Assembly (NCBI GenBank): GCA_035649495.1 | Contig: DASRJL010000014.1 | Coordinates: 138-64,137 of the forward strand | Direction of reading: 5' to 3' | DNA length: 64,000 nt | From: Burkholderiales bacterium | Lineage (GTDB): Bacteria > Pseudomonadota > Gammaproteobacteria > Burkholderiales > SG8-41 | Shown: piece after piece, positions 3,532 to 12,648 of the stretch | Position numbering within the stretch: the first letter of the stretch is position 1 | Layout: each line of letters starts with the position of its first letter | The notes under the pieces: generated by a model | Told to the model about the DNA's origin: nothing | What the model saw: only the letters and a program-made list of their open reading frames with translations | Database searches by the model: none | Position numbers and translations under genes: made by a program

Positions 3532-3659
3532 GTGACCCGTGACTCGTGACACGTTTCTCAACGATCCTAGCAGCAAATCCGGGGCCGAAAGCAAGGCAGT
3601 CGGGCTGAGTGTAAGATTTCGGTGCATTGACGGGTCACTGGTCACGAGTCACGTGTCAC
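3532..3659. repeat. inverted heptamer-array hairpin element
   Basis: Left arm is GTGACCC GTGACTC GTGACAC (3532-3552). Right arm is GGGTCAC TGGTCAC GAGTCAC GTGTCAC (3632-3659). The unique core is 79 nt. Lies in a divergent promoter region. Confidence 0.7.
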
Positions 3660-3675
3660 TTCTTGGGAGAACGCA

Positions 3676-4464
3676 ATGCCCTGGATCGAAGCAAACGGCG
3701 CCAGCCTGCGGTACGAGCTGTCCGGATCGGGAAAAGAAACCTTGGTGCTGATGCACGAGGCCGGCGGGTGCCTCGAAAGCTACGAGGACGCGCTGCCCGG
3801 ACTGGAGAAAGATTTCCGCGTGCTGCGCTACGACCAGCGCGGCTTCGGATTTTCGGAGAAGGTGCGGGAGCTCACCTTCGACGGCGTAGTAGCGGACCTG
3901 GCCGGACTCCTCGATGCGCTGAAGATCACCGCGCCGGTGCACGTGGCAGGGTGCGCGATGGGCGCCGATTTTTCGGTCGGATTCGCCGCGCGTCACCCCG
4001 GCCGGTTGGCGAAGCTCGTCCTGGCGAGCCCCAACATCGACAGCAATGCCGGACGCGGGCAGCAAAGCATCGAGCGCGCCGCGGTGGCCGAGCGCGAGGG
4101 GATACGCGCCGTCATGCAATCCAGCCACGACCGTTCCTATCCCGAGCACTTCCGCGCGCAGGATCCGGAGCGCTTCCGGCGCTACCAGTCGCGCTGGGTC
4201 TGCAACACGCCGGCCTCGTTCACCGCCGCGGCCCGCATGATGCTCGCGGTGGACCTCACGCCCGAATACCCGAAGATCAAGGCGCCGACGCTGGTCATAG
4301 GCGCGAAGCACGATGGGCTGCGTCCGCCGGAGAAAGCAGAACGCGTAGCCAAGGCCATCTCCGGCGCGAAGTACCTGCTGGCCGATACCGGGCACTTCAT
4401 GAACCTGGAGACGCCGCAGCTTTTTGCAGAAACGGTCGTAGCCTTCTTCAAATCAAAACTGTGA
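3676..4464 (+). CDS. alpha/beta-fold hydrolase (3-oxoadipate enol-lactonase-like)
   Basis: GGGAGA RBS. The LVLMHEAGG, RYDQRGFGFS and HFMNLE segments fit the alpha/beta hydrolase fold. The nucleophile elbow reads G-C-A-M-G instead of G-x-S-x-G. Confidence 0.85.
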   Translation: MPWIEANGASLRYELSGSGKETLVLMHEAGGCLESYEDALPGLEKDFRVLRYDQRGFGFSEKVRELTFDGVVADLAGLLDALKITAPVHVAGCAMGADFSVGFAARHPGRLAKLVLASPNIDSNAGRGQQSIERAAVAEREGIRAVMQSSHDRSYPEHFRAQDPERFRRYQSRWVCNTPASFTAAARMMLAVDLTPEYPKIKAPTLVIGAKHDGLRPPEKAERVAKAISGAKYLLADTGHFMNLETPQLFAETVVAFFKSKL

Positions 4465-4467
4465 CCC

Positions 4468-5154
4468 GTGATGGGAGTTGTAGTACTGCTCGCCCTCGTG
4501 CTCGGCGCTGCAGCGCTTCCTGCGGACGCACAGCAGCCCCCCTGGCAAAAAGAGATGGACCAGGCGCGGCGCAGTGCAGCCGCGGGAAACGAGGATATAA
4601 CCATTCTTACTTTCCCGGGACCCGAGAGCGCGCGAAGCGGCGTGTACGTCTTCTACAACGACCCGCGCCCGTTCTGCTATACGTACATGATTCCCGGAGA
4701 ATGGGTTCCGAGACCCAGAGAGCGCGCCTATTACTCGAAGGACGGCCGGAGATTCGCCGGGGTATTGTTCTGGCTGGCCAGGAACCTCGAGGGGGAGGAT
4801 GGCGCGACGCTGGTCGAGCGGGCCGGGAGCCGCATCACCAAGGCGCACCGGAAGCAATACGGAGACGCGCTGGCGGGGGTCGAGTTCGTGCCGTTCGAGT
4901 CTTCCCGCTCCGGCATCTGGCAGTGGCGCGCCGCGCCGATCACCAAGGGCGAATCGCGAATCAACTTCCCCGCAAAGCTCGTCGTCGACCTGAGTCCGGA
5001 CGCGGTTGCGCAGATTACAGTTGTCGGGACTTCGGACGACGAGCAGCTGGCTCTGGCCCGGCAGATCCTCGAGAGCCTCCGGACGACCAAGGACCCGGAG
5101 TGCTTTTTTCCCGTTCTCGAAAGCATGCACAAGGCACGCTACGAGAATCGATAG
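4468..5154 (+). CDS. hypothetical secreted protein
   Basis: Signal peptide MMGVVVLLALVLGAAALPADAQQ. No recognisable domain. Confidence 0.6.
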   Translation: MMGVVVLLALVLGAAALPADAQQPPWQKEMDQARRSAAAGNEDITILTFPGPESARSGVYVFYNDPRPFCYTYMIPGEWVPRPRERAYYSKDGRRFAGVLFWLARNLEGEDGATLVERAGSRITKAHRKQYGDALAGVEFVPFESSRSGIWQWRAAPITKGESRINFPAKLVVDLSPDAVAQITVVGTSDDEQLALARQILESLRTTKDPECFFPVLESMHKARYENR

Positions 5155-5155
5155 C

Positions 5156-5224
5156 ATGCCCATCGACGAATCGCGCGAGCGCTACCGCGAGGCGATCGAG
5201 GTGTTCTTCGAGATTGCATCCTAG
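5156..5224 (+). pseudogene. relic fragment of an LLM-class oxidoreductase gene
   Basis: MPIDESRERYREAIEVFFEIAS matches NIEESRDRYRETLEVFFKACVS of the gene at 1..1044. The DNA also matches (tcgcgcgaNcgctaccgcgag...tcgaggtgttcttc). The fragment is only about 22 codons long. Confidence 0.4.
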
Positions 5225-5311
5225 ACCCTGTGGTGGTATCAATCGGGCGTCGTGACAGAGCCTTGCCGGCCTCGTCCGCCGCTGTGTTGAAGTCCTCGGG
5301 AGGGACCCTTC

Positions 5312-6412
5312 ATGCAAGCTTGTCATCGGCTCCGTATCTGGGCACTCGTCGCCTTGCTGGGAGCAGGAAACACACATGCCGCACTGATTTTCAACTTCAC
5401 AACCTCGACGGGCGACGCGCAGGCTGATGCCGCTTTCGCCGCCGCGGCGCAGCGCTGGTCGAACCTGCTGACCGACAACGTCACGGTGAACGTTGCCATA
5501 GGATATAAACTGCTGGATCCCGGTTTCCTCGGCTTCACGACGACCGAAAAGGCCAATTACGATTACACAGATGTCAGGGCTGCGCTGGTTGGCGATGCCA
5601 AGTCAACTGACGATGCCACCGCAATTGGCGGCCTTCAGGCGGCGCCGGCAATCAAGCTTCTGACCAACCGGAGCTCGAGCAGTCCCAACGGCTCGGGCAG
5701 CGCGATCCCCTACGTGGACAGCGGCGCAGACGCCAACAACACGAGCCTGTTCATAACTAACGCCAACGCGAAGGCTCTGGGGCTGCTGCCGGCCACGAAC
5801 GCCGCCCTGGATGGATCGATCGAGTTCAGCACCGCTTTCACCTTTGACTTCAACCCCCTGGATGGGATCACCGCCGGGGCCCACGATTTCGTCGGCGTTG
5901 CAACTCACGAGATCGGTCACCTGCTCGGCTTCATCAGCGGGGACGATGCGCTCGACTTCTTCAGCCAGCCGGTGAACGACGGCCCATACGACGTCAACGC
6001 GTTCGCGGACAACAGTATTCTCGACCTCTACCGGTACTCTGCCGAGAGTTTCGCGCTCGGAGTGGTCGATTGGACTGCCGACACCCGGGCGAAGTACTTT
6101 TCCCTCGACGGCGGAGTGACCAACCTCTACCTCTTCTCGACCAGGAGCTTCTTCGGCGATGGCAACGAGGCCGGCCACTGGAAAGACGGCCAGGGTATCG
6201 GCATCATGGATCCGACGGCGGCACAGGGAGAACTCCTGGCCATCACCGCGCGCGATGTACAGGCGTTCGACGTGATCGGGTGGGACTTGAAGGGTTCTGC
6301 GGTTCCCGAGCCCGGCACGCTCGCACTCGGTTTCCTCGGCGTCGCAGCGTTGGCCGCCGGCAGACGCAGGCGTGCCATCGAGTCAGGGCGCGCGATCGAA
6401 GTCCGGGTCTGA
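5312..6412 (+). CDS. secreted zinc metalloprotease with C-terminal PEP-CTERM sorting domain
   Basis: Signal peptide, HEIGHLLGF zinc-binding motif, and C-terminal VPEPGTLALGFLGVAALAAGRRRR (PEP motif, TM segment, Arg cluster). Confidence 0.8.
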   Translation: MQACHRLRIWALVALLGAGNTHAALIFNFTTSTGDAQADAAFAAAAQRWSNLLTDNVTVNVAIGYKLLDPGFLGFTTTEKANYDYTDVRAALVGDAKSTDDATAIGGLQAAPAIKLLTNRSSSSPNGSGSAIPYVDSGADANNTSLFITNANAKALGLLPATNAALDGSIEFSTAFTFDFNPLDGITAGAHDFVGVATHEIGHLLGFISGDDALDFFSQPVNDGPYDVNAFADNSILDLYRYSAESFALGVVDWTADTRAKYFSLDGGVTNLYLFSTRSFFGDGNEAGHWKDGQGIGIMDPTAAQGELLAITARDVQAFDVIGWDLKGSAVPEPGTLALGFLGVAALAAGRRRRAIESGRAIEVRV

Positions 6413-6610
6413 CCCCACTAAGTATCGGACGCTGCGAAATTTCTCGTCTGAAACGACGCAATTTTTGGCCTCAGAGCGCCAGTTTTGGGGCCAGAATTGG
6501 CCGTCTTGAGTTCCGCCCAATTGAAAGCCAGATCGCTTAGAACGCCAGTTTTCCGGAAAGTCACGCTTCTGAGCGGCCAATTGCAGATCGAACTGATAAG
6601 ATAGGTTTTT

Positions 6611-6637
6611 CTTCACGAGTCACGCGTCACGGGTCAC
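6611..6637. repeat. tandem heptamer array (NNGTCAC x4)
   Basis: CTTCAC GAGTCAC GCGTCAC GGGTCAC, just upstream of the candidate selenoprotein gene. Confidence 0.6.
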
Positions 6638-6655
6638 TTTTTCTTGAGTACGCCT

Positions 6656-7426
6656 ATGGAAATCACCGCTGATAAATGGATGTACTTCACCCAGCCCGGG
6701 TGAAGCAGCTGCCTCCGAACGAAAGAGTTTCTTTCGAAAAACGGATTGGACATGGTCGTCATCGACGTCCTGAACGACGCCGGTGGCCGTGAGCTGCTGT
6801 TCGAAAAGTACGGCCTGCGCAAGGTGCCCGTCCTCGCGAAGGGTGATCGCTACGCCATGGGCCAGATGCTCGAGCCGTTCGCGAAGCTCGCCGGCATCCC
6901 GCTCGCGGCTCCCGGCGGGCTGTCACCGGAACAGCTCTACGGAAAATACGAAATGGTCTTCGCCGCCGGCCAGCGTTTCGCGCGGCAGTTTCCGGCGGAC
7001 CGAATTCTGGAACGCGTCATCCCGCACCGCGAGCGCGCGATCAGGACGCTGTGCTACCACGTGTTCCGCATCGGCGAATCGTTCCTGGAGACGTGGGACG
7101 GTGCGGAGTACGCGGCGAAGATCGCCGATGGCGAGCCGCCCGCGGCCATGAGGAGCGGAGAGGACATCGCCAACTACGGCGGCGACGTCTGGCGGCGGTA
7201 CGAAGCGTGGTGGGCAGGACTCGATGACCGCAAGCTTTCCAGGGTGCTCAAGACCTACTACGGCGATACCGTCGCTCACAAGGTTTTCGAGCGCGTCACG
7301 TGGCATTCCGCGCAGCACTGCAGGCAACTGGTGGCGGTGCTGGAGCGGATGGGGATAGAGCCCGATCGGCCGTTGACAGCCGAGGATCTCGCGGGGCTGC
7401 CGCTGCCCGAGCGGTTGTGGGAGTAA
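6656..7426 (+). CDS. candidate selenoprotein: thioredoxin-fold (glutaredoxin/ArsC-Spx-like, U-S-S-C) domain fused to a DinB-family domain
   Basis: ATG 6656 (or 6680) is in frame with TGA 6701-6703 and with track ORF 6746..7426. The junction reads WMYFTQPG-U-SSC-LRTKEFLSKNGLDMVVIDV...KVPVLAKGD, a Grx-like fold. The C-terminal half carries a DinB-like WHSAQHCRQL motif. A hairpin follows the TGA. Confidence 0.7.
6715..6744 (+). promoter_or_regulatory. putative bacterial SECIS hairpin for TGA 6701
   Basis: CGAAAG(A) at 6720-6726 pairs with (U)CUUUCG at 6730-6736. The apical loop contains G-U. A lower CCG/CGG stem lies at 6715-6717 and 6742-6744. The hairpin begins 16 nt after the TGA. Confidence 0.5.
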
Positions 7427-7439
7427 CGCCCCTACTTTG

Positions 7440-7973
7440 CTACAAATCGGTGTCCACTTTTCGTGGGTAACTCGGACGCATAACGTCCCGCATGATCCCC
7501 GCGAAGCGGTCGGTATCGATGCGGTGGTTGGAGCGCTCCCTCAAACGACTGCTGTCGGCGCACTCATCGCTTTTCTCCACCTGCACTCGTCCCGCTGACC
7601 AGTGTGTACGGCTTGGACCATCGGCATAGCCGGTCCAGTGGACACAAGCGCCGACTGCGAAATCGCGATCCGTTGAAACGACGTGTAATGTCCCATCGCC
7701 AGTGCGAATCTGGTAGACCACTCGACCGGGAGTGCGATAGAGGAATCTCGAATCTATCGTCGTCGGAGTCGCGCCGACCTGCACCGGAATTCTCGCGGGT
7801 TCGCCATCCGGCCCATAGAACGCGGGAGCAGATTCAACCACTGATCGATCTTCGATTCTTCCCACGCCCGTACCTGGATAGTCGGTCTGAAGCGGGTAGT
7901 ACGGTCCAACAGTGCAACCCGCCATGCCCATAGCAAGTACCGCGAATACCGATCGGGAAGGTCGTCGCACCAT
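7440..7973 (-). CDS. hypothetical lipoprotein
   Basis: Lipobox-like MVRRPSRSVFAVLAMGMAGC when started at ATG 7973. Lies in a lower-GC patch. No domain recognised. Confidence 0.5.
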   Translation of the reverse strand: MVRRPSRSVFAVLAMGMAGCTVGPYYPLQTDYPGTGVGRIEDRSVVESAPAFYGPDGEPARIPVQVGATPTTIDSRFLYRTPGRVVYQIRTGDGTLHVVSTDRDFAVGACVHWTGYADGPSRTHWSAGRVQVEKSDECADSSRLRERSNHRIDTDRFAGIMRDVMRPSYPRKVDTDL

Positions 7974-7995
7974 GGAGGGTCGAAGCGTAGCTTGC

Positions 7996-8433
7996 TCAGT
8001 CATCAAAGGCCCAGTTTGCAGGACTGCCATCCTTGAAGAACACCCTCACCAGCCAATCAGGTTGTTCGCGCCACTGAAAGCAAACATGGAAGCCCTCTTC
8101 CGATTCGGCAAAGACTATTACGTCCTCCAGAAGTAATTCGTTCGCAGTGACTGCGCGGCGCGCCTCTTCGGACAACCGGGCAATCAGATACTCGGTGGCC
8201 GTATCAAGGGTTACTTTTGGGTCCCGAACGACTTGTAGGAGCTTCTGACACGCTTGATCGGCGACATAGTTCGGCGGCTTCCCAGGGATATAAATCGGGA
8301 TTCGACGCTCCCCGTACGGCACTTCGGTCCGCCAATGCCTGTTTTCGCCGTCCCATTTCAGTTCTCCAAACTCACCGTGCTTGATAGGTGCGATCGGTTC
8401 TGCCTTTGAACCACCGAATAGGCGGGCAAACAT
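7996..8433 (-). CDS. hypothetical protein (145 aa)
   Basis: Coding-like composition in a lower-GC patch. No recognisable family. Confidence 0.5.
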   Translation of the reverse strand: MFARLFGGSKAEPIAPIKHGEFGELKWDGENRHWRTEVPYGERRIPIYIPGKPPNYVADQACQKLLQVVRDPKVTLDTATEYLIARLSEEARRAVTANELLLEDVIVFAESEEGFHVCFQWREQPDWLVRVFFKDGSPANWAFDD

Positions 8434-8525: not shown

Positions 8526-9734
8526 CTACACCACCCTCGCCGCTTGCAGCCTGCCGAGTTCCTCGCTCGACAGACCAAGCCGGCCGCAGTAGATCTCGTC
8601 GTTGTGCTCGCCCAGCCGCGGCGCCGCGCGCGTCGTCTGCATGACGTTCTCGCCGTCGAAGAAGAACCCCGGCCCGGGATACTTGAGCGTGCCCGTCTCC
8701 GGATGGTCGAGCTCCACGAAGAAACCCCGCTCGGCCAGGTGTGGTGAATTCACCACCTGCTCCGGACTCTGCACCAGCCCGACCACCAGGCCGCGGGCCA
8801 TGGTTTCGCGCATCAGGTCCAGGTTGTTCCACTCCTCGAGCTTCGGCGCGATCAGATCCCGCAGCTCCTGCCAGTTGTCCGTCCGCGACTGGCGCGTCGC
8901 GAATTTGGGATCCAGCAGCCGCGGCTCGCCCAGGAATTCCGCCCAGACCTGCATGGGCTTGCCGCCGGTGCCGGCCGTGGTGAGCGTCACCTCGCCGTCT
9001 TTTGTCGGCAGGTGCATGCCGTCCACGACGTTGAGATCCATGTTTCCCCGTCGGACATTGCGGCCCGTATAGCTGTAAGGGTGTATGAGTCCCTGCGGTG
9101 TGGCGATCGCCGCCTCCATCACGGAAACGTCGATGTGGCCGCCCTCACCCGTCTGCTCCCGGCGCAGGAGCGCAGCCATGAAGGCGATGACGCCGTTACG
9201 GCCGGCGGTGAGCTCCATCTGCTGCAGAGCCGTGCCCATCGGCGGCCCGTCCGCCTTGCCGGTGACCGCGTAGAGGAAGCCCCCCATCGCCTGGGCGATC
9301 AGGTCGTTTCCCTTGTAGTTGGCGTACGGGCCGTGCTGCCCGAAGTACGAGATGGAGAGCAAAATCGTTCCGGGATTCCCGGCGCGCAATGCCTGGTAGC
9401 CGAGCCCGAGGTCGGCCAGGTGGCCCGGCTCGAAGCTTTCGATAATGACGTCAGCGGCGCTTGCAAGCTTCAAGAAAAGCGAACGGCCCGCCGCCTGTCC
9501 CAGGTCCAGAGTGATTCCGCGCTTGTTGGTGTTGAGCGCCAGGAACGTGGTGCTCCGGTCAGGGTGCGCCTCGCCGCCGACAAACGGGGGTTCGTGACGG
9601 CCCTGGTCCCCCGAGCCCGGCGGTTCCACCTTGATGGTGTCGGCGCCCTGGTCCGCGAGCAGCTTGGCGCAGAACGCCCCGGAGGGCGCGTGGGCAAGCT
9701 CCAGCACTTTCACCTCTGAGAGTATCGCGTCCAT
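8526..9734 (-). CDS. family III CoA-transferase (CaiB/BaiF type)
   Basis: N-terminal VKVLELAHAPSGAFCAKLLADQGADTIKVEPP signature and the length typical of the family. Confidence 0.9.
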   Translation of the reverse strand: MDAILSEVKVLELAHAPSGAFCAKLLADQGADTIKVEPPGSGDQGRHEPPFVGGEAHPDRSTTFLALNTNKRGITLDLGQAAGRSLFLKLASAADVIIESFEPGHLADLGLGYQALRAGNPGTILLSISYFGQHGPYANYKGNDLIAQAMGGFLYAVTGKADGPPMGTALQQMELTAGRNGVIAFMAALLRREQTGEGGHIDVSVMEAAIATPQGLIHPYSYTGRNVRRGNMDLNVVDGMHLPTKDGEVTLTTAGTGGKPMQVWAEFLGEPRLLDPKFATRQSRTDNWQELRDLIAPKLEEWNNLDLMRETMARGLVVGLVQSPEQVVNSPHLAERGFFVELDHPETGTLKYPGPGFFFDGENVMQTTRAAPRLGEHNDEIYCGRLGLSSEELGRLQAARVV

Positions 9735-9776: not shown

Positions 9777-9954
9777 AAGGATGAAGGATGAACGTGGAAA
9801 GATGACCCTCACCTTCAGTGATAGTTGCTTGTCCCGGCCTTTCGGTACCCTCGGCCGGTAGCTTCCCGACCGGGCGGAGCGAAAGAGAGGGGCGCTTGAG
9901 CACGCGCAAAGCGTAGGGTCATCCTTCATCCTTCCGCCTTCATCCTTGTTCTTC
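9777..9954. repeat. inverted heptamer-array hairpin element (AAGGATG type)
   Basis: Left arm is AAGGATG AAGGATG AACGTGG. Right arm is CATCCTT CATCCTT CCGCCTT CATCCTT GTTCTTC. An inner stem pairs GATGACCCT with AGGGTCATC. Confidence 0.7.
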
Positions 9955-11200
9955 ACGGCGCCTTTTCTTCGGGTCGCGGCCTGGTCGAGATGACGCCCTC
10001 CTCCGCCAGCGCGCGGATTTCGTCCGGGGAGAGTCCCGCGACCTCGCGCAGCACCGTCTCGTTGTGTTCTCCCAGCGTGGGCACCTGCCGGATTGCCATG
10101 TTCAACCCGGGCGTGCGGAAGGGTCTGCCGGCAAAGGCGCGCAGACCCCCGGCGCGCTCGATCTCCTGAATCGATCCTCTCTCCCTGAGATGCGGATCGT
10201 TGACCAGGTCGGCCCCGGTCAAAACGGCGCCGGCGCAAACGCCTTGCGCCTGCAGCGACCGTGCCAGTTCCCGATCGTCCTGCGTTGCGGTCCAGTCTGC
10301 TATTTTCCGGTCGAGCTCGTGGCGATTCTGCCAGCGGCCTTCCATCGAGTCGTAGCGTGCCTCCTGCGCCCAGGGCGGGGCGCCCATGGCTTTCTTCAAG
10401 GCGGCCCACTCGGCGTCATCGGAAACCGCGATGGCGATCCAGCGATCGCGGCCCGCGCACGGATACACGTTGTGCGGCGCTTTCCGGAGATGCCCGCAGC
10501 CCAGCCGCGGCCGCGTTATGCCCCGCTGAGCCTCCAGGATCGCTGGGCCTATGCAGGAAATCCCGGTCTCCTGCATGGTGAGGTCGATGCGCATCCCCTT
10601 GCCGGTCCGCTTCCGGCGATACAGCGCGAGGAGGAGCGCGAAGGCCACGTTGTTGCCAGTGGAGTGATCCATGTAGTTGTTGCTCGCTCTCACCGACGGG
10701 CCGCCCTCGTAGCCGGTGAGGTAGGACATGCCGCTCGACGCATCCACGGTGCGGGCACGAGACCCGGCGCTGCGCCACGGTCCGGTGTAGCCGTAAGCCG
10801 TGCTGGAGAGCGTGATGATGCGGGGATTGATCTGCGCGAGGCTTTCGTGGTCGAAGCCGAACCGCTTCATCGTGCCTGGCCTGAAATTGTCGGTCACGAT
10901 GTCGCAGTTCTTCACGAGCTTGAGGAAAACCTCCTTCCCGGCGGGACGGGTTACCTCCAGGCACAGGCTCTGCTTGTTGCGGACGCCGAAGTACGCCAGA
11001 TTTCCGCCCTCGTTCCACCACTCCGCGCCGGCCTTGCCATTGGGGAACGGCCCGGACTTGCGGTCCTGGAGGTGATCCAGGCTTTCGATGCGGATCACCT
11101 GGGCGCCCAGGTCCGCCAGGAAGGCGGTACCCCAGGGAAGAGCATGGACCTGCTCCAGCGTTAGGACCCTGACTCCCTCGAGCGGCAGCGCTGCTGACAT
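9953..11200 (-). CDS. family III CoA-transferase
   Basis: VRVLTLEQVHALPWGTAFLADLGAQVIRIES signature. GAGGAAA RBS. Confidence 0.9.
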   Translation of the reverse strand: MSAALPLEGVRVLTLEQVHALPWGTAFLADLGAQVIRIESLDHLQDRKSGPFPNGKAGAEWWNEGGNLAYFGVRNKQSLCLEVTRPAGKEVFLKLVKNCDIVTDNFRPGTMKRFGFDHESLAQINPRIITLSSTAYGYTGPWRSAGSRARTVDASSGMSYLTGYEGGPSVRASNNYMDHSTGNNVAFALLLALYRRKRTGKGMRIDLTMQETGISCIGPAILEAQRGITRPRLGCGHLRKAPHNVYPCAGRDRWIAIAVSDDAEWAALKKAMGAPPWAQEARYDSMEGRWQNRHELDRKIADWTATQDDRELARSLQAQGVCAGAVLTGADLVNDPHLRERGSIQEIERAGGLRAFAGRPFRTPGLNMAIRQVPTLGEHNETVLREVAGLSPDEIRALAEEGVISTRPRPEEKAP

Positions 11201-11409: not shown

Positions 11410-12648
11410 ATGAGCGGGGTTTACGAGGGCCTCACGGTGGTCGAGCTTGCCGATCGCCGCAACCAGTGGGCAGGCAAGCTGCTGTCGGACGGGGGCGCCC
11501 GCGTGATCCAGATCGAGCCCATCCAGGGAAGCCCCGGCCGGTGGTGCGGCCCCTTCGTCGACGACAAGGTCGATCCCGACCGCTGCCTCGACTACTGGTG
11601 GAACAACACGGGCAAGCAGAGCGTGGCAATGGATATCGGGCGCGACCCTGCCCGGGATCTCCTGAGGAAACTCCTTGCCGGCGCCGACGTGTTCCTCGAG
11701 AGCACGCGGCCGGGCACACTGGCGAAGCTCGACCTGGACTACGGCGCCGTCGGCGCCAGCAAGGCGTTGATCTACGCCTCGCTCACCGACTTCGGCCAGG
11801 ACGGGCCGTGGCGCGATCTGCAGATGAACGACGCCGCTCATCTCGCCCTCGGCGGCCAGATGTCGAGCTCGGGCTACTCGGATCCCGCCGCCACGCCGAT
11901 CGGCGGACAGGGCCACCAGGCGTGGCACATGGGCTGCGCGTTCGTCCTGCACGGCATCACCGTGGCTCTGTTCGACCGGATGACCTCGGGTGAAGGCCAG
12001 TACATCGACGTCTCGATCCACGACGCCTGCGCTATCGGCACCGAGGCCGCGGTGCCGCAGTGGATGTACTACGGCTCGACGATGTACCGTCAGACCGGCA
12101 TGCACGCGAATGCCAAGCGGCAGCCGCCCCTGCAGCTACCGACTGCCGACGGCAAGCACATGATCGCCGTGATGCAGAACTTCGGTCCGCGGGTATGGGA
12201 GAGGCTGATCAAATGGATGGACGAGAAAGGCGTAACGGGCGAGCTGCACGATCCCAAGTACAACGACGAGGCGTTTCGCATGTCCGAGTACCGTACGGGC
12301 AATGTCGTCCGTGACGCCATCGCGCGCCTGATCGCAGCCAGCAACGGTGAAGAATGCTTCCATCGCGCGCAGTCGTACGGCATCTCGTGGGGCCTCGTTC
12401 ACGCTTGCGAAGAGAATTACGACATCCCGCATTATCAGCAGCGCAAATACTGGCGCTCGATCGAGCACCCGGAGATCGGCCGCGCCATTCCCTATCCGCG
12501 CGGGCCGGTCGCGTGCGATGAGATTGGAATCGAACCCAGGCGCCGTGCGCCGCATCTCGGCGAGCACACCCGGCAAATCCTCCAGGGGGACCTCGGCATG
12601 AACGAAAAAGAGATCACGGCGCTCGCCGCGTCGGGAGCCATACGATGA
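11410..12648 (+). CDS. family III CoA-transferase
   Basis: LTVVELADRRNQWAGKLLSDGGARVIQIEP signature. Confidence 0.9.
   Translation: MSGVYEGLTVVELADRRNQWAGKLLSDGGARVIQIEPIQGSPGRWCGPFVDDKVDPDRCLDYWWNNTGKQSVAMDIGRDPARDLLRKLLAGADVFLESTRPGTLAKLDLDYGAVGASKALIYASLTDFGQDGPWRDLQMNDAAHLALGGQMSSSGYSDPAATPIGGQGHQAWHMGCAFVLHGITVALFDRMTSGEGQYIDVSIHDACAIGTEAAVPQWMYYGSTMYRQTGMHANAKRQPPLQLPTADGKHMIAVMQNFGPRVWERLIKWMDEKGVTGELHDPKYNDEAFRMSEYRTGNVVRDAIARLIAASNGEECFHRAQSYGISWGLVHACEENYDIPHYQQRKYWRSIEHPEIGRAIPYPRGPVACDEIGIEPRRRAPHLGEHTRQILQGDLGMNEKEITALAASGAIR

Follow-up and report, generated by a model that had tools for sequence, protein, structure and literature searches.

The window analysed here is a stretch of 64,000 nucleotides (nt) from a Burkholderiales bacterium (GenBank assembly GCA_035649495.1, contig DASRJL010000014.1). 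Translation of positions 6400–7600 shows a forward-strand reading frame which opens with an ATG at 6656–6658, contains a second ATG at 6680–6682 and, apart from a sole in-frame stop, TGA at 6701–6703, remains open to a TAA at 7424–7426. All these coordinates are as in the original prediction, which took the TGA for a selenocysteine (Sec) codon in a fusion between a thioredoxin-fold and a DinB-family domain. From the comparisons presented below, 6656–7426 is very probably a genuine Sec-encoding gene, whose product would be a glutaredoxin (Grx) with a UxxC active site joined to a DinB domain (Table 1). The read-through peptide starts with MEITADKWMYFTQPG-U-SSCLRTKEFLSKNG.... ATG 6656 is the likelier start codon because the first alignment column is Met in 82% of orthologues while column 9, which corresponds to ATG 6680 here, is mostly Leu. 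The mechanical list of open reading frames (ORFs) puts the gene start at TTG 6746, and public gene calls for close relatives begin at Met33, equivalent to ATG 6752 here, giving proteins of 222–225 residues.

Table 1. Coordinates of the predicted Grx-DinB gene and of its features in the window (SECIS, selenocysteine insertion sequence; CDS, coding sequence; A1 and A2, protein alignments; P0204, closest Cys homologue).
Feature	Coordinates	Strand	Remarks
Predicted Grx(UxxC)-DinB selenoprotein CDS	6656..7426	+	256 codons including Sec16, then TAA stop
TGA read as selenocysteine (predicted), residue 16	6701..6703	+	conserved in loci; aligned to Cys in homologues
U-S-S-C redox motif, Sec16 and resolving Cys19	6701..6712	+	start of helix alpha-1, thioredoxin fold
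SECIS-type hairpin, stem 6720-6726/6730-6736, loop GUU 6727-6729	6720..6736	+	starts 16 nt after TGA
Glutaredoxin/NrdH-like thioredoxin-fold domain, residues 9-65 by Pfam	6680..6850	+	PF00462
Pro58 codon, before strand beta-3, cis-Pro position	6827..6829	+	invariant in 71/71 (P59 in P0204)
DinB/YfiT-like four-helix bundle, ~residues 90-256	6923..7423	+	Pfam DinB_2, Foldseek
His135, first of putative three-His metal site	7058..7060	+	invariant 71/71 (A1), 59/59 (A2)
His217-x-x-x-His221 (WHSAQH), second and third His, last bundle helix	7304..7318	+	invariant 71/71 (A1)

A scan of one genome per species gave 53 loci, mostly from Burkholderiales and Betaproteobacteria metagenome-assembled genomes (MAGs). 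In most of them, tblastn matches were full-length, covering residues 1–256 across the TGA, and 45 complete loci were translated. The TGA was the only stop, always at the same position, in 44 of these 45, which share the motif ...[FL]TQPG*SSCL[RK]TKEFLS... (asterisk, TGA). The remaining locus, L048 (Porticoccaceae, 37% identity), reads WAPGCSSCLRTKEFL. We also scanned metagenome contigs with a degenerate DNA pattern spanning the UGA. At least 120 contigs matched and carry the in-frame TGA, and a complete downstream ORF with an HxxxH motif was present in 111 of 123 scanned loci (120 contigs from the scan plus L059–L061). Three divergent, truncated cluster representatives were examined and all three have an in-frame TGA at the Cys position. 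Thus, the scattered stops or frameshifts over 6656–6745 which would mark a decayed leader were not encountered in these genome loci and contigs.

With L048 as query, we recovered a large Cys-form family of 250–290 residues from Gamma-, Alpha- and Betaproteobacteria. Its members carry Glutaredoxin and DinB_2 domains and are annotated as ‘glutaredoxin domain-containing protein’, ‘NrdH-redoxin’ or ‘DinB family protein’. A C[ST]SC motif lies near the N-terminus in 115 of 120 such sequences. Aligned in A1, 60/60 Cys-form homologues have a Cys opposite the TGA, and the resolving Cys never varies either; the TGA therefore sits at the first redox Cys, as had been proposed. All 60 have the full Grx domain and none starts past the TGA. 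In a neighbour-joining tree, the Sec forms group in a single clade, which splits into the window type and, at about 50% identity to it, a branch formed by L043, L045 and L046. Two further candidates, both truncated in appearance, were rejected as Sec forms. P0140 has a Cys and a mis-called start; P0154 (L055:1500-1700) is a Cys form reading MSNTFQVYWAPGCTSCL, after which the RTKEFL segment and the frame are lost, which looks like a deletion, a frameshift or an assembly error.

A codon alignment was built from the 45 Sec loci. Upstream of the TGA, residues 10–15 (YFTQPG) show 91–100% amino-acid conservation, each with 2–4 synonymous codons. Between the TGA and Met33, the amino acids S17, S18, C19, L20 and R21 are likewise conserved and their codons vary synonymously. 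Since residues are conserved while codons vary on either side of the TGA, both sides must be translated in frame and kept by purifying selection. The codon itself acts as an ordinary stop in the window, where TGA ends Pfam-complete genes at 25–1044, 9953–11200 and 11410–12648, and has therefore not been reassigned genome-wide. We also observed that the base following the UGA is always A in Sec forms (UGA-AGY or UGA-ACN). The Ser17 codon is AGC/AGT in Sec forms and TCC/TCG in 5 of 6 Cys-form loci, the sixth having Thr (ACG). This bias may reflect a context requirement for Sec insertion.

The downstream hairpin, CGAAAGA-GUU-UCUUUCG, has a perfect 7-bp stem and lies where the original prediction placed it, with the expected GU in its loop. 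The lower CCG/CGG stem proposed along with it is present in the window, and its bases are not kept in orthologues. In the codon alignment, the longest invariant nucleotide run of the whole gene is 6719–6736 (18 nt). The next longest runs measure 5 nt, 7301–7305 being one of only two. Of 133 degenerate codons with amino-acid conservation of 90% or more, only 6 are invariant, and all six are consecutive (ACG AAA GAG TTT CTT TCG, 6719–6736) and coincide with the hairpin. CTT, which represents 6.8% of Leu codons elsewhere in the family, is used in 100% of cases in this block; TTT and AAA elsewhere account for 34% of Phe and 42% of Lys codons, respectively. The block has 39% GC in a gene of 64% GC. 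Cys-form loci encode the same LRTKEFL peptide differently, all six using ACC AAG GAR TTY followed by CTG, CTC, TTG or TTA, with no comparable hairpin. The first loop base, at the wobble position of the Glu codon, is G in 155 of 156 unique Sec-form sequences versus 2 of 6 Cys forms. These patterns point to a downstream RNA element which is under selection specifically in the TGA forms and which, in the window's class, corresponds to the 6720–6736 hairpin.

The element varies among more distant Sec forms. Every USSC form among the 156 unique Sec-form sequences has the window hairpin, which is exact in 105/166 sequences. The low-GC relative L061 has GUGAAAGA-GUA-UCUUUCAC, where the outer C-G pair is replaced by U-A, a compensatory change, and a G-C pair is added. 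A ‘KEFLGKH’ (‘GKH’) subgroup has a different stem, CUAAGG/CCUUGG, capped by an AGUU loop that lies equally far from the UGA. Whether orthologues keep both the TGA and the hairpin was a check put forward in the original prediction. They keep the TGA (44/45) and, within the window's class, the hairpin; a Reyranella-type subgroup (UTSCLRLKEFLSVR; e.g. L076 and L065) lacks the window-type stem. There, between +14 and +30 counted from the U of UGA, Leu is CTG in 34 of 37 sequences and Arg, unless Lys AAA takes its place, is always AGA, constraints that would fit a stem GAGACU/AGUUUC with a CAAAG loop, five nt further upstream. A single family-wide SECIS consensus was tried and rejected, as RNAalifold on the 156 unique sequences returned no common structure; the subgroups use different registers. 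In Reyranella-type loci, a second conserved hairpin lies after the stem just described, and either structure might act as the SECIS. If confirmed, the family would offer a set of different natural SECIS designs over the same conserved peptide, in which SelB recognition could be studied beyond E. coli.

When Cys is put in place of the TGA-encoded residue, the N-terminal part matches PF00462 (E = 1.1e-11, 45.1 bits against a gathering cutoff of 22.9). Sequence-profile matches in the PDB were glutaredoxin (7c10/7c12), the thioredoxin-like BC3987 and NrdH, and Foldseek also returned BC3987 and NrdH for this part, with 3zit at TMt 0.86–0.88. NrdH and BC3987, among the nearest solved relatives, are thioredoxin-reductase-dependent. 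For the structure, P0204, the Cys homologue closest to the window protein (47% identical), was modelled with AlphaFold2 from a 71-sequence alignment (pLDDT 95.4, pTM 0.91). The model shows a thioredoxin fold, a linker and then four long helices. The fold runs beta-alpha-beta-alpha-beta-beta-alpha (E10-14, H19-30, E35-39, H44-53, E60-63, E66-69, H73-80), with the redox motif between strand 10–14 and helix 19–30; C18/C21 and P59 are invariant. By analogy with this fold, Pro58 of the window protein would adopt the cis conformation. NCBIfam gave weak, partial Grx-like matches, all far below cutoff (YruB 33.9 vs 88.55, Uxx_star 25.4 vs 66, ArsC_rel_Se_1 14.2 vs 85), and no model spanning the whole protein. 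The original prediction had left the choice between glutaredoxin and ArsC/Spx-like folds open; the glutaredoxin side was borne out by Pfam and Foldseek, and the ArsC/Spx reading, with only weak partial matches, was rejected in favour of Grx/NrdH.

The C-terminal part proved to be a DinB-type four-helix bundle, as had been suggested from its WHSAQH segment. Foldseek against the PDB ranked DR0053 (6iz2) first (E = 1.5e-4, probability 1.0, TMt 0.84), followed by other DinB/YfiT structures (YjoA 3dka, 2f22, 3gor, YfiT 1rxq, MDMPI 2nsf), with 11–17% sequence identity. Precomputed PF12867 matches exist for many close and distant homologues. The His triad agrees with this assignment. In alignment A2, the first and third His are conserved in 59/59 sequences and the middle one (H217) only in at least 90%. 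Other invariant residues, in P0204 numbering, are R127, W186, T201-Y202, R214, R224 and Q225. Characterised DinB-family enzymes include bacillithiol and mycothiol S-transferases and relatives which use a low-molecular-weight thiol (PMC4360819).

Genes for Sec decoding, which the original prediction had advised looking for, were searched by tblastn with E. coli SelA, SelB and SelD; selA and selB turned up beside the gene in relatives, and none of the three in the 64-kb window. In L043, L045 and L046, selA and then selB lie directly downstream of the gene (SelA Pfam E = 3.8e-156) and mnmA lies upstream, an mnmA - grx-dinB - selA - selB order kept in three species (L043:3016-6400, L045:3043-6756, L046:977-4228). 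More generally, selA and/or selB occur on the same strand within ~2 kb in 13 of 168 Sec-form loci, or in 12 of the 94 whose downstream sequence extends to 1.5 kb or more. The loci come from several subgroups (also L062, L067, L100, L107, L111, L119, L144, L157, L160 and L181) and show the order gene-selA-selB or selA-selB-gene, in some cases with an intervening TctC/Bug gene on the opposite strand. One of the selA-adjacent loci, L046, and a window-type orthologue, L031, belong to the same MAG (JBOIEI01, SC-S_metawrap_bin.91), which thus carries two paralogous Sec-form genes, ~50% identical, with an identical 18-nt hairpin block. The window's orthologue is therefore accompanied by selA and selB in at least one genome.

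Taken together, we consider it probable that the locus encodes a Sec-decoded Grx-DinB enzyme equipped with a SECIS, a metal site and thiol(selenol) chemistry. The analysis shows the gene structure, the Sec/Cys pairing, the selection on the hairpin, both folds and the selA-selB linkage in relatives; we infer from these that SelB binds, that selenium is incorporated, that a metal is bound and which chemistry follows. UGA codon 16 would be decoded as Sec during translation, with SelB and its Sec-tRNA(Sec) recruited by the SECIS hairpin within the coding sequence, 16 nt downstream. Sec16-Ser-Ser-Cys19 would then cycle between a selenol/thiol and a selenenylsulfide, and His135, His217 and His221 of the DinB bundle would bind a divalent metal. 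The protein would most likely act as an oxidoreductase or S-transferase that is thiol(selenol)-dependent and self-contained: the DinB metal site may bind and activate a substrate or a low-molecular-weight thiol, the tethered Sec16/Cys19 centre may give the nucleophile or the reducing equivalents, and Sec would replace Cys for its higher reactivity. Our confidence in this specific enzymology is much lower than in the status of the gene as Sec-encoding. The decoding logic is standard, a UGA with an intragenic SECIS; it is the family and its architecture that have been missed by the inventories consulted and by current annotation pipelines.

Several observations weigh against this interpretation. 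Within the 64-kb window, the part of the genome seen here, selA, selB, selD and tRNA-Sec are absent and no tRNA was found; neither selD nor tRNA-Sec turned up in the fetched loci. The hairpin is a short, AU-rich structure whose stability does not exceed that of shuffled sequence (z = 0.30 for a 60-nt fold; dG = -5.2 kcal/mol for the 17-nt hairpin alone). Because this thermodynamic test is uninformative, we relied on conservation: folding downstream of the TGA, which the original prediction had offered as a check, does place the hairpin there, and it is invariance instead that reveals the constraint. This invariance is within the window's subgroup, and only a few distant relatives provide covariation. 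No Rfam family was found at gathering thresholds over the whole window, and a relaxed search of 6600–6850 gave only a chance miRNA match. SECIS geometry is not uniform across the family, the Reyranella-type subgroup being without the lower part of the window stem. The DinB_2 match of the window protein itself (PF12867, residues 123–225) falls just short of the cutoff, with 21.9 bits against 24.8. Finally, in the window's subgroup no conserved operon partner points to a substrate, and the literature yielded no characterised member of the family, Cys or Sec.

Among other explanations, the one which survives best also has a real selenoprotein, serving selenium handling for the Sec pathway and not general redox or detoxification. 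Its task could be, for example, to supply SelD by reducing selenite, selenodiglutathione or a selenotrisulfide, or else to bind selenide and pass it on. Grx(Sec)-DinB would then be a dedicated Sec-pathway partner, a reductase or carrier co-inherited with selA-selB which supplies or recycles reduced selenium. The same-strand selA-selB adjacency that recurs across subgroups and the conserved mnmA - grx-dinB - selA - selB order speak for such a role, and thioredoxin-fold dithiols and metal/thiolate sites would be chemically suited to selenium trafficking. Nevertheless, we regard it as unlikely. The window's own subgroup shows no selA-selB linkage, the Cys-form loci examined have unrelated neighbours, selD is never adjacent, and selenoprotein genes often adjoin sel genes simply through co-inheritance. 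If true, it would add a new functional component to bacterial selenium metabolism, beyond another redox selenoprotein, and Grx(Sec)-DinB could even be a main reason why these aerobic soil and freshwater Proteobacteria retain the Sec trait.

A second explanation dispenses with selenium: UGA16 would be read by a near-cognate or suppressor tRNA (inserting Trp, Cys or Gly), or be reassigned, and the hairpin would be a read-through context. The hairpin does differ from the fdhF SECIS in spacing and shape, selD was seen in no fetched locus, and selenium incorporation at UGA16 is itself deduced from sequence comparison. We consider this very improbable, as UGA serves as a normal stop elsewhere in the window and the position is that of the nucleophilic CxxC Cys in 60/60 homologues, a classic Sec/Cys pair; moreover, selA-selB adjoin the gene in 13 loci from several subgroups, and G at the first loop base is selected only in TGA forms. 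To a third, that the TGA is a true stop, 6656–6745 a decayed Grx remnant and the DinB protein made from about 6746/6752, we give hardly any credence: public gene calls among the matches listed all begin past the TGA and the hairpin is thermodynamically unexceptional, but in more than 160 independent loci the frame is interrupted exactly once, at the catalytic position, and is otherwise open to either side of it, a Met33 start would lose strand beta-1 and helix alpha-1 yet retain the rest of the Grx domain, and the purifying selection seen at codons 10–15 and 17–21, conserved as amino acids with synonymous variation, excludes both a dead leader and a Met33-start protein.

We return to the Sec-decoded Grx-DinB enzyme to consider its distribution. 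A search with the read-through protein gave 2609 matches, of which the best 120 were all at least 79% identical, 222–225 residues long and called from Met33, so that gene callers cut these proteins at the same place. A cluster search with the window's protein from Met33 to its end matched 672 clusters at 50% identity (E <= 0.001); among the best 150 clusters at least 195 residues long, an N-terminal CxxC was absent in 69 and present in 36. A Reyranella-type query gave 1685 matches, the best 120 all truncated (198–239 residues). The truncated matches include the RefSeq/UniRef entry of the isolate Reyranella soli, named ‘glutaredoxin domain-containing protein’. Among the matches listed, no source annotates the full-length Sec form and every public call starts past the TGA; automated callers do lose the N-terminal redox motif, as had been anticipated. 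The Sec family is widespread in soil and freshwater bacteria.

The original prediction knew of no selenoprotein family described with this architecture, which is consistent with the literature consulted. A 2026 inventory of 119 prokaryotic selenoprotein families (PMC13188914) makes no mention of DinB, YfiT or PF12867, and its sole PF00462 entry is a small stand-alone Grx. DinB is unmentioned in a 2022 review and in the GOS study, and full-text searches combining selenoprotein or selenocysteine with DinB returned nothing relevant. Fragments of the Grx-DinB family might be hidden among the 42 reads of the older GOS category ‘Grx-like, UxxC’. If the gene is what we propose, an abundant family and a new domain architecture are added to the bacterial selenoproteome, with the first DinB-superfamily protein tied to selenium. 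It would also reveal a systematic annotation error, extending to the RefSeq entry for cultured Reyranella soli: thousands of entries named ‘DinB family protein’ or ‘hypothetical protein’ stand without their catalytic domain. The fusion offers a way into the DinB_2 proteins of Proteobacteria, which are poorly understood, since the fused Grx domain suggests that their chemistry needs a dithiol or selenol-thiol partner, and the recurrent selA-selB adjacency is a testable link to selenium metabolism.

The surroundings of the gene gave no clue to its substrate, nor did the unrelated neighbours in the Cys-form loci examined. ORFs 3627–5255, 5312–6412 and 7440–8030 have no Pfam match at 1e-5 and no counterpart beside the gene in related loci; some may not be genes, given DNA of 64% GC. 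ORF clustering of the neighbourhoods was dominated by spurious antisense ORFs of high-GC DNA and by the CoA-transferase III and TctC/Bug families. We therefore treated the window's subgroup as having no functional linkage with its neighbours. Three successive family III CoA-transferase genes (8526–9734 and 9953–11200 on the minus strand, 11410–12648 on the plus strand) and a luciferase-like monooxygenase gene (25–1044) lie in the window. CoA-transferase III and TctC/Bug genes recur near orthologues, which probably reflects no more than the great abundance of these families in Burkholderiales.

A promoter and terminator scan of 6350–7650 gave no match, and no sigma-70-like promoter was found upstream of the gene (6440–6640). 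The 240-bp upstream intergenic region (6440–6640) contains three short direct-repeat pairs (CTYAGARCGCCAGTTTT, CGSCCAATTG and AGTCACGCKTC) spaced by 59–66 nt. This suggests two degenerate copies of a ~60–66-nt unit, possibly regulator binding sites. Orthologues 79–82% identical to the window gene were also found on MAG contigs labelled Streptomyces/Streptomycetaceae (L006, L013, L016) or Bordetella parapertussis (L011, L044); these labels look like binning or naming errors.

Among known systems, the selenoprotein glutaredoxin is a small UxxC Grx (PF00462) listed as experimentally verified, e.g. from Clostridium oremlandii/Geobacter (PMC13188914). The window protein shares with it the Grx thioredoxin fold, the N-terminal Sec of UxxC, the in-frame UGA with a downstream hairpin and the existence of Cys homologues. 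However, the selenoprotein glutaredoxin is stand-alone, with ~80–100 residues, whereas the window protein has 256 residues with a fused DinB domain and an active site, USSC in a QPGUSSCLRTKEFL context, unlike that of the known protein. As in DinB/YfiT enzymes (B. subtilis YfiT/BstA, mycothiol S-transferase Mst, mycothiol-dependent maleylpyruvate isomerase, D. radiodurans DR0053), its C-terminal part is a four-helix bundle with one His plus HxxxH. The known members are single-domain proteins or other fusions which use free bacillithiol, mycothiol or glutathione as thiol and, in contrast to the window protein, none has been reported with a fused Grx or with Sec.

A broader resemblance exists to Cys-type thiol transferases of the glutathione S-transferase (GST) fold, namely GST omega, DHAR, CLIC and E. 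coli Grx2, which also combine a thioredoxin-fold N-domain, a catalytic residue starting helix alpha-1 and an all-helical C-domain. Foldseek matches of this type cover the whole length with probability 0.95–1.0, at TM 0.25–0.38 and a root-mean-square deviation of 10–17 A. Canonical GST membership was rejected on these last two values and the resemblance is architectural only, GSTs having, unlike the window protein, a different topology of the helical domain and no three-His metal site.

The E. coli fdhF SECIS is an in-ORF hairpin just 3' of the UGA, with a ~17-nt minimal element and a G-U in its apical loop. The window hairpin is likewise in the ORF just 3' of the UGA, with G-U in its apical loop. 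It differs in its spacing (16 vs ~11 nt), its perfect 7-bp AU-rich stem, the lack of a bulged U and its 3-nt loop. Further counterparts are the Cys-form Grx-DinB proteins of Proteobacteria (e.g. in Luminiphilus syltensis NOR5-1B and Ramlibacter monticola), with 37–47% identity and the same length and architecture. They share the QPG-C-[ST]-S-C-LRTKEFL motif and the His triad with the window protein, and have TGC/TGT instead of TGA and no hairpin at the matching codons.

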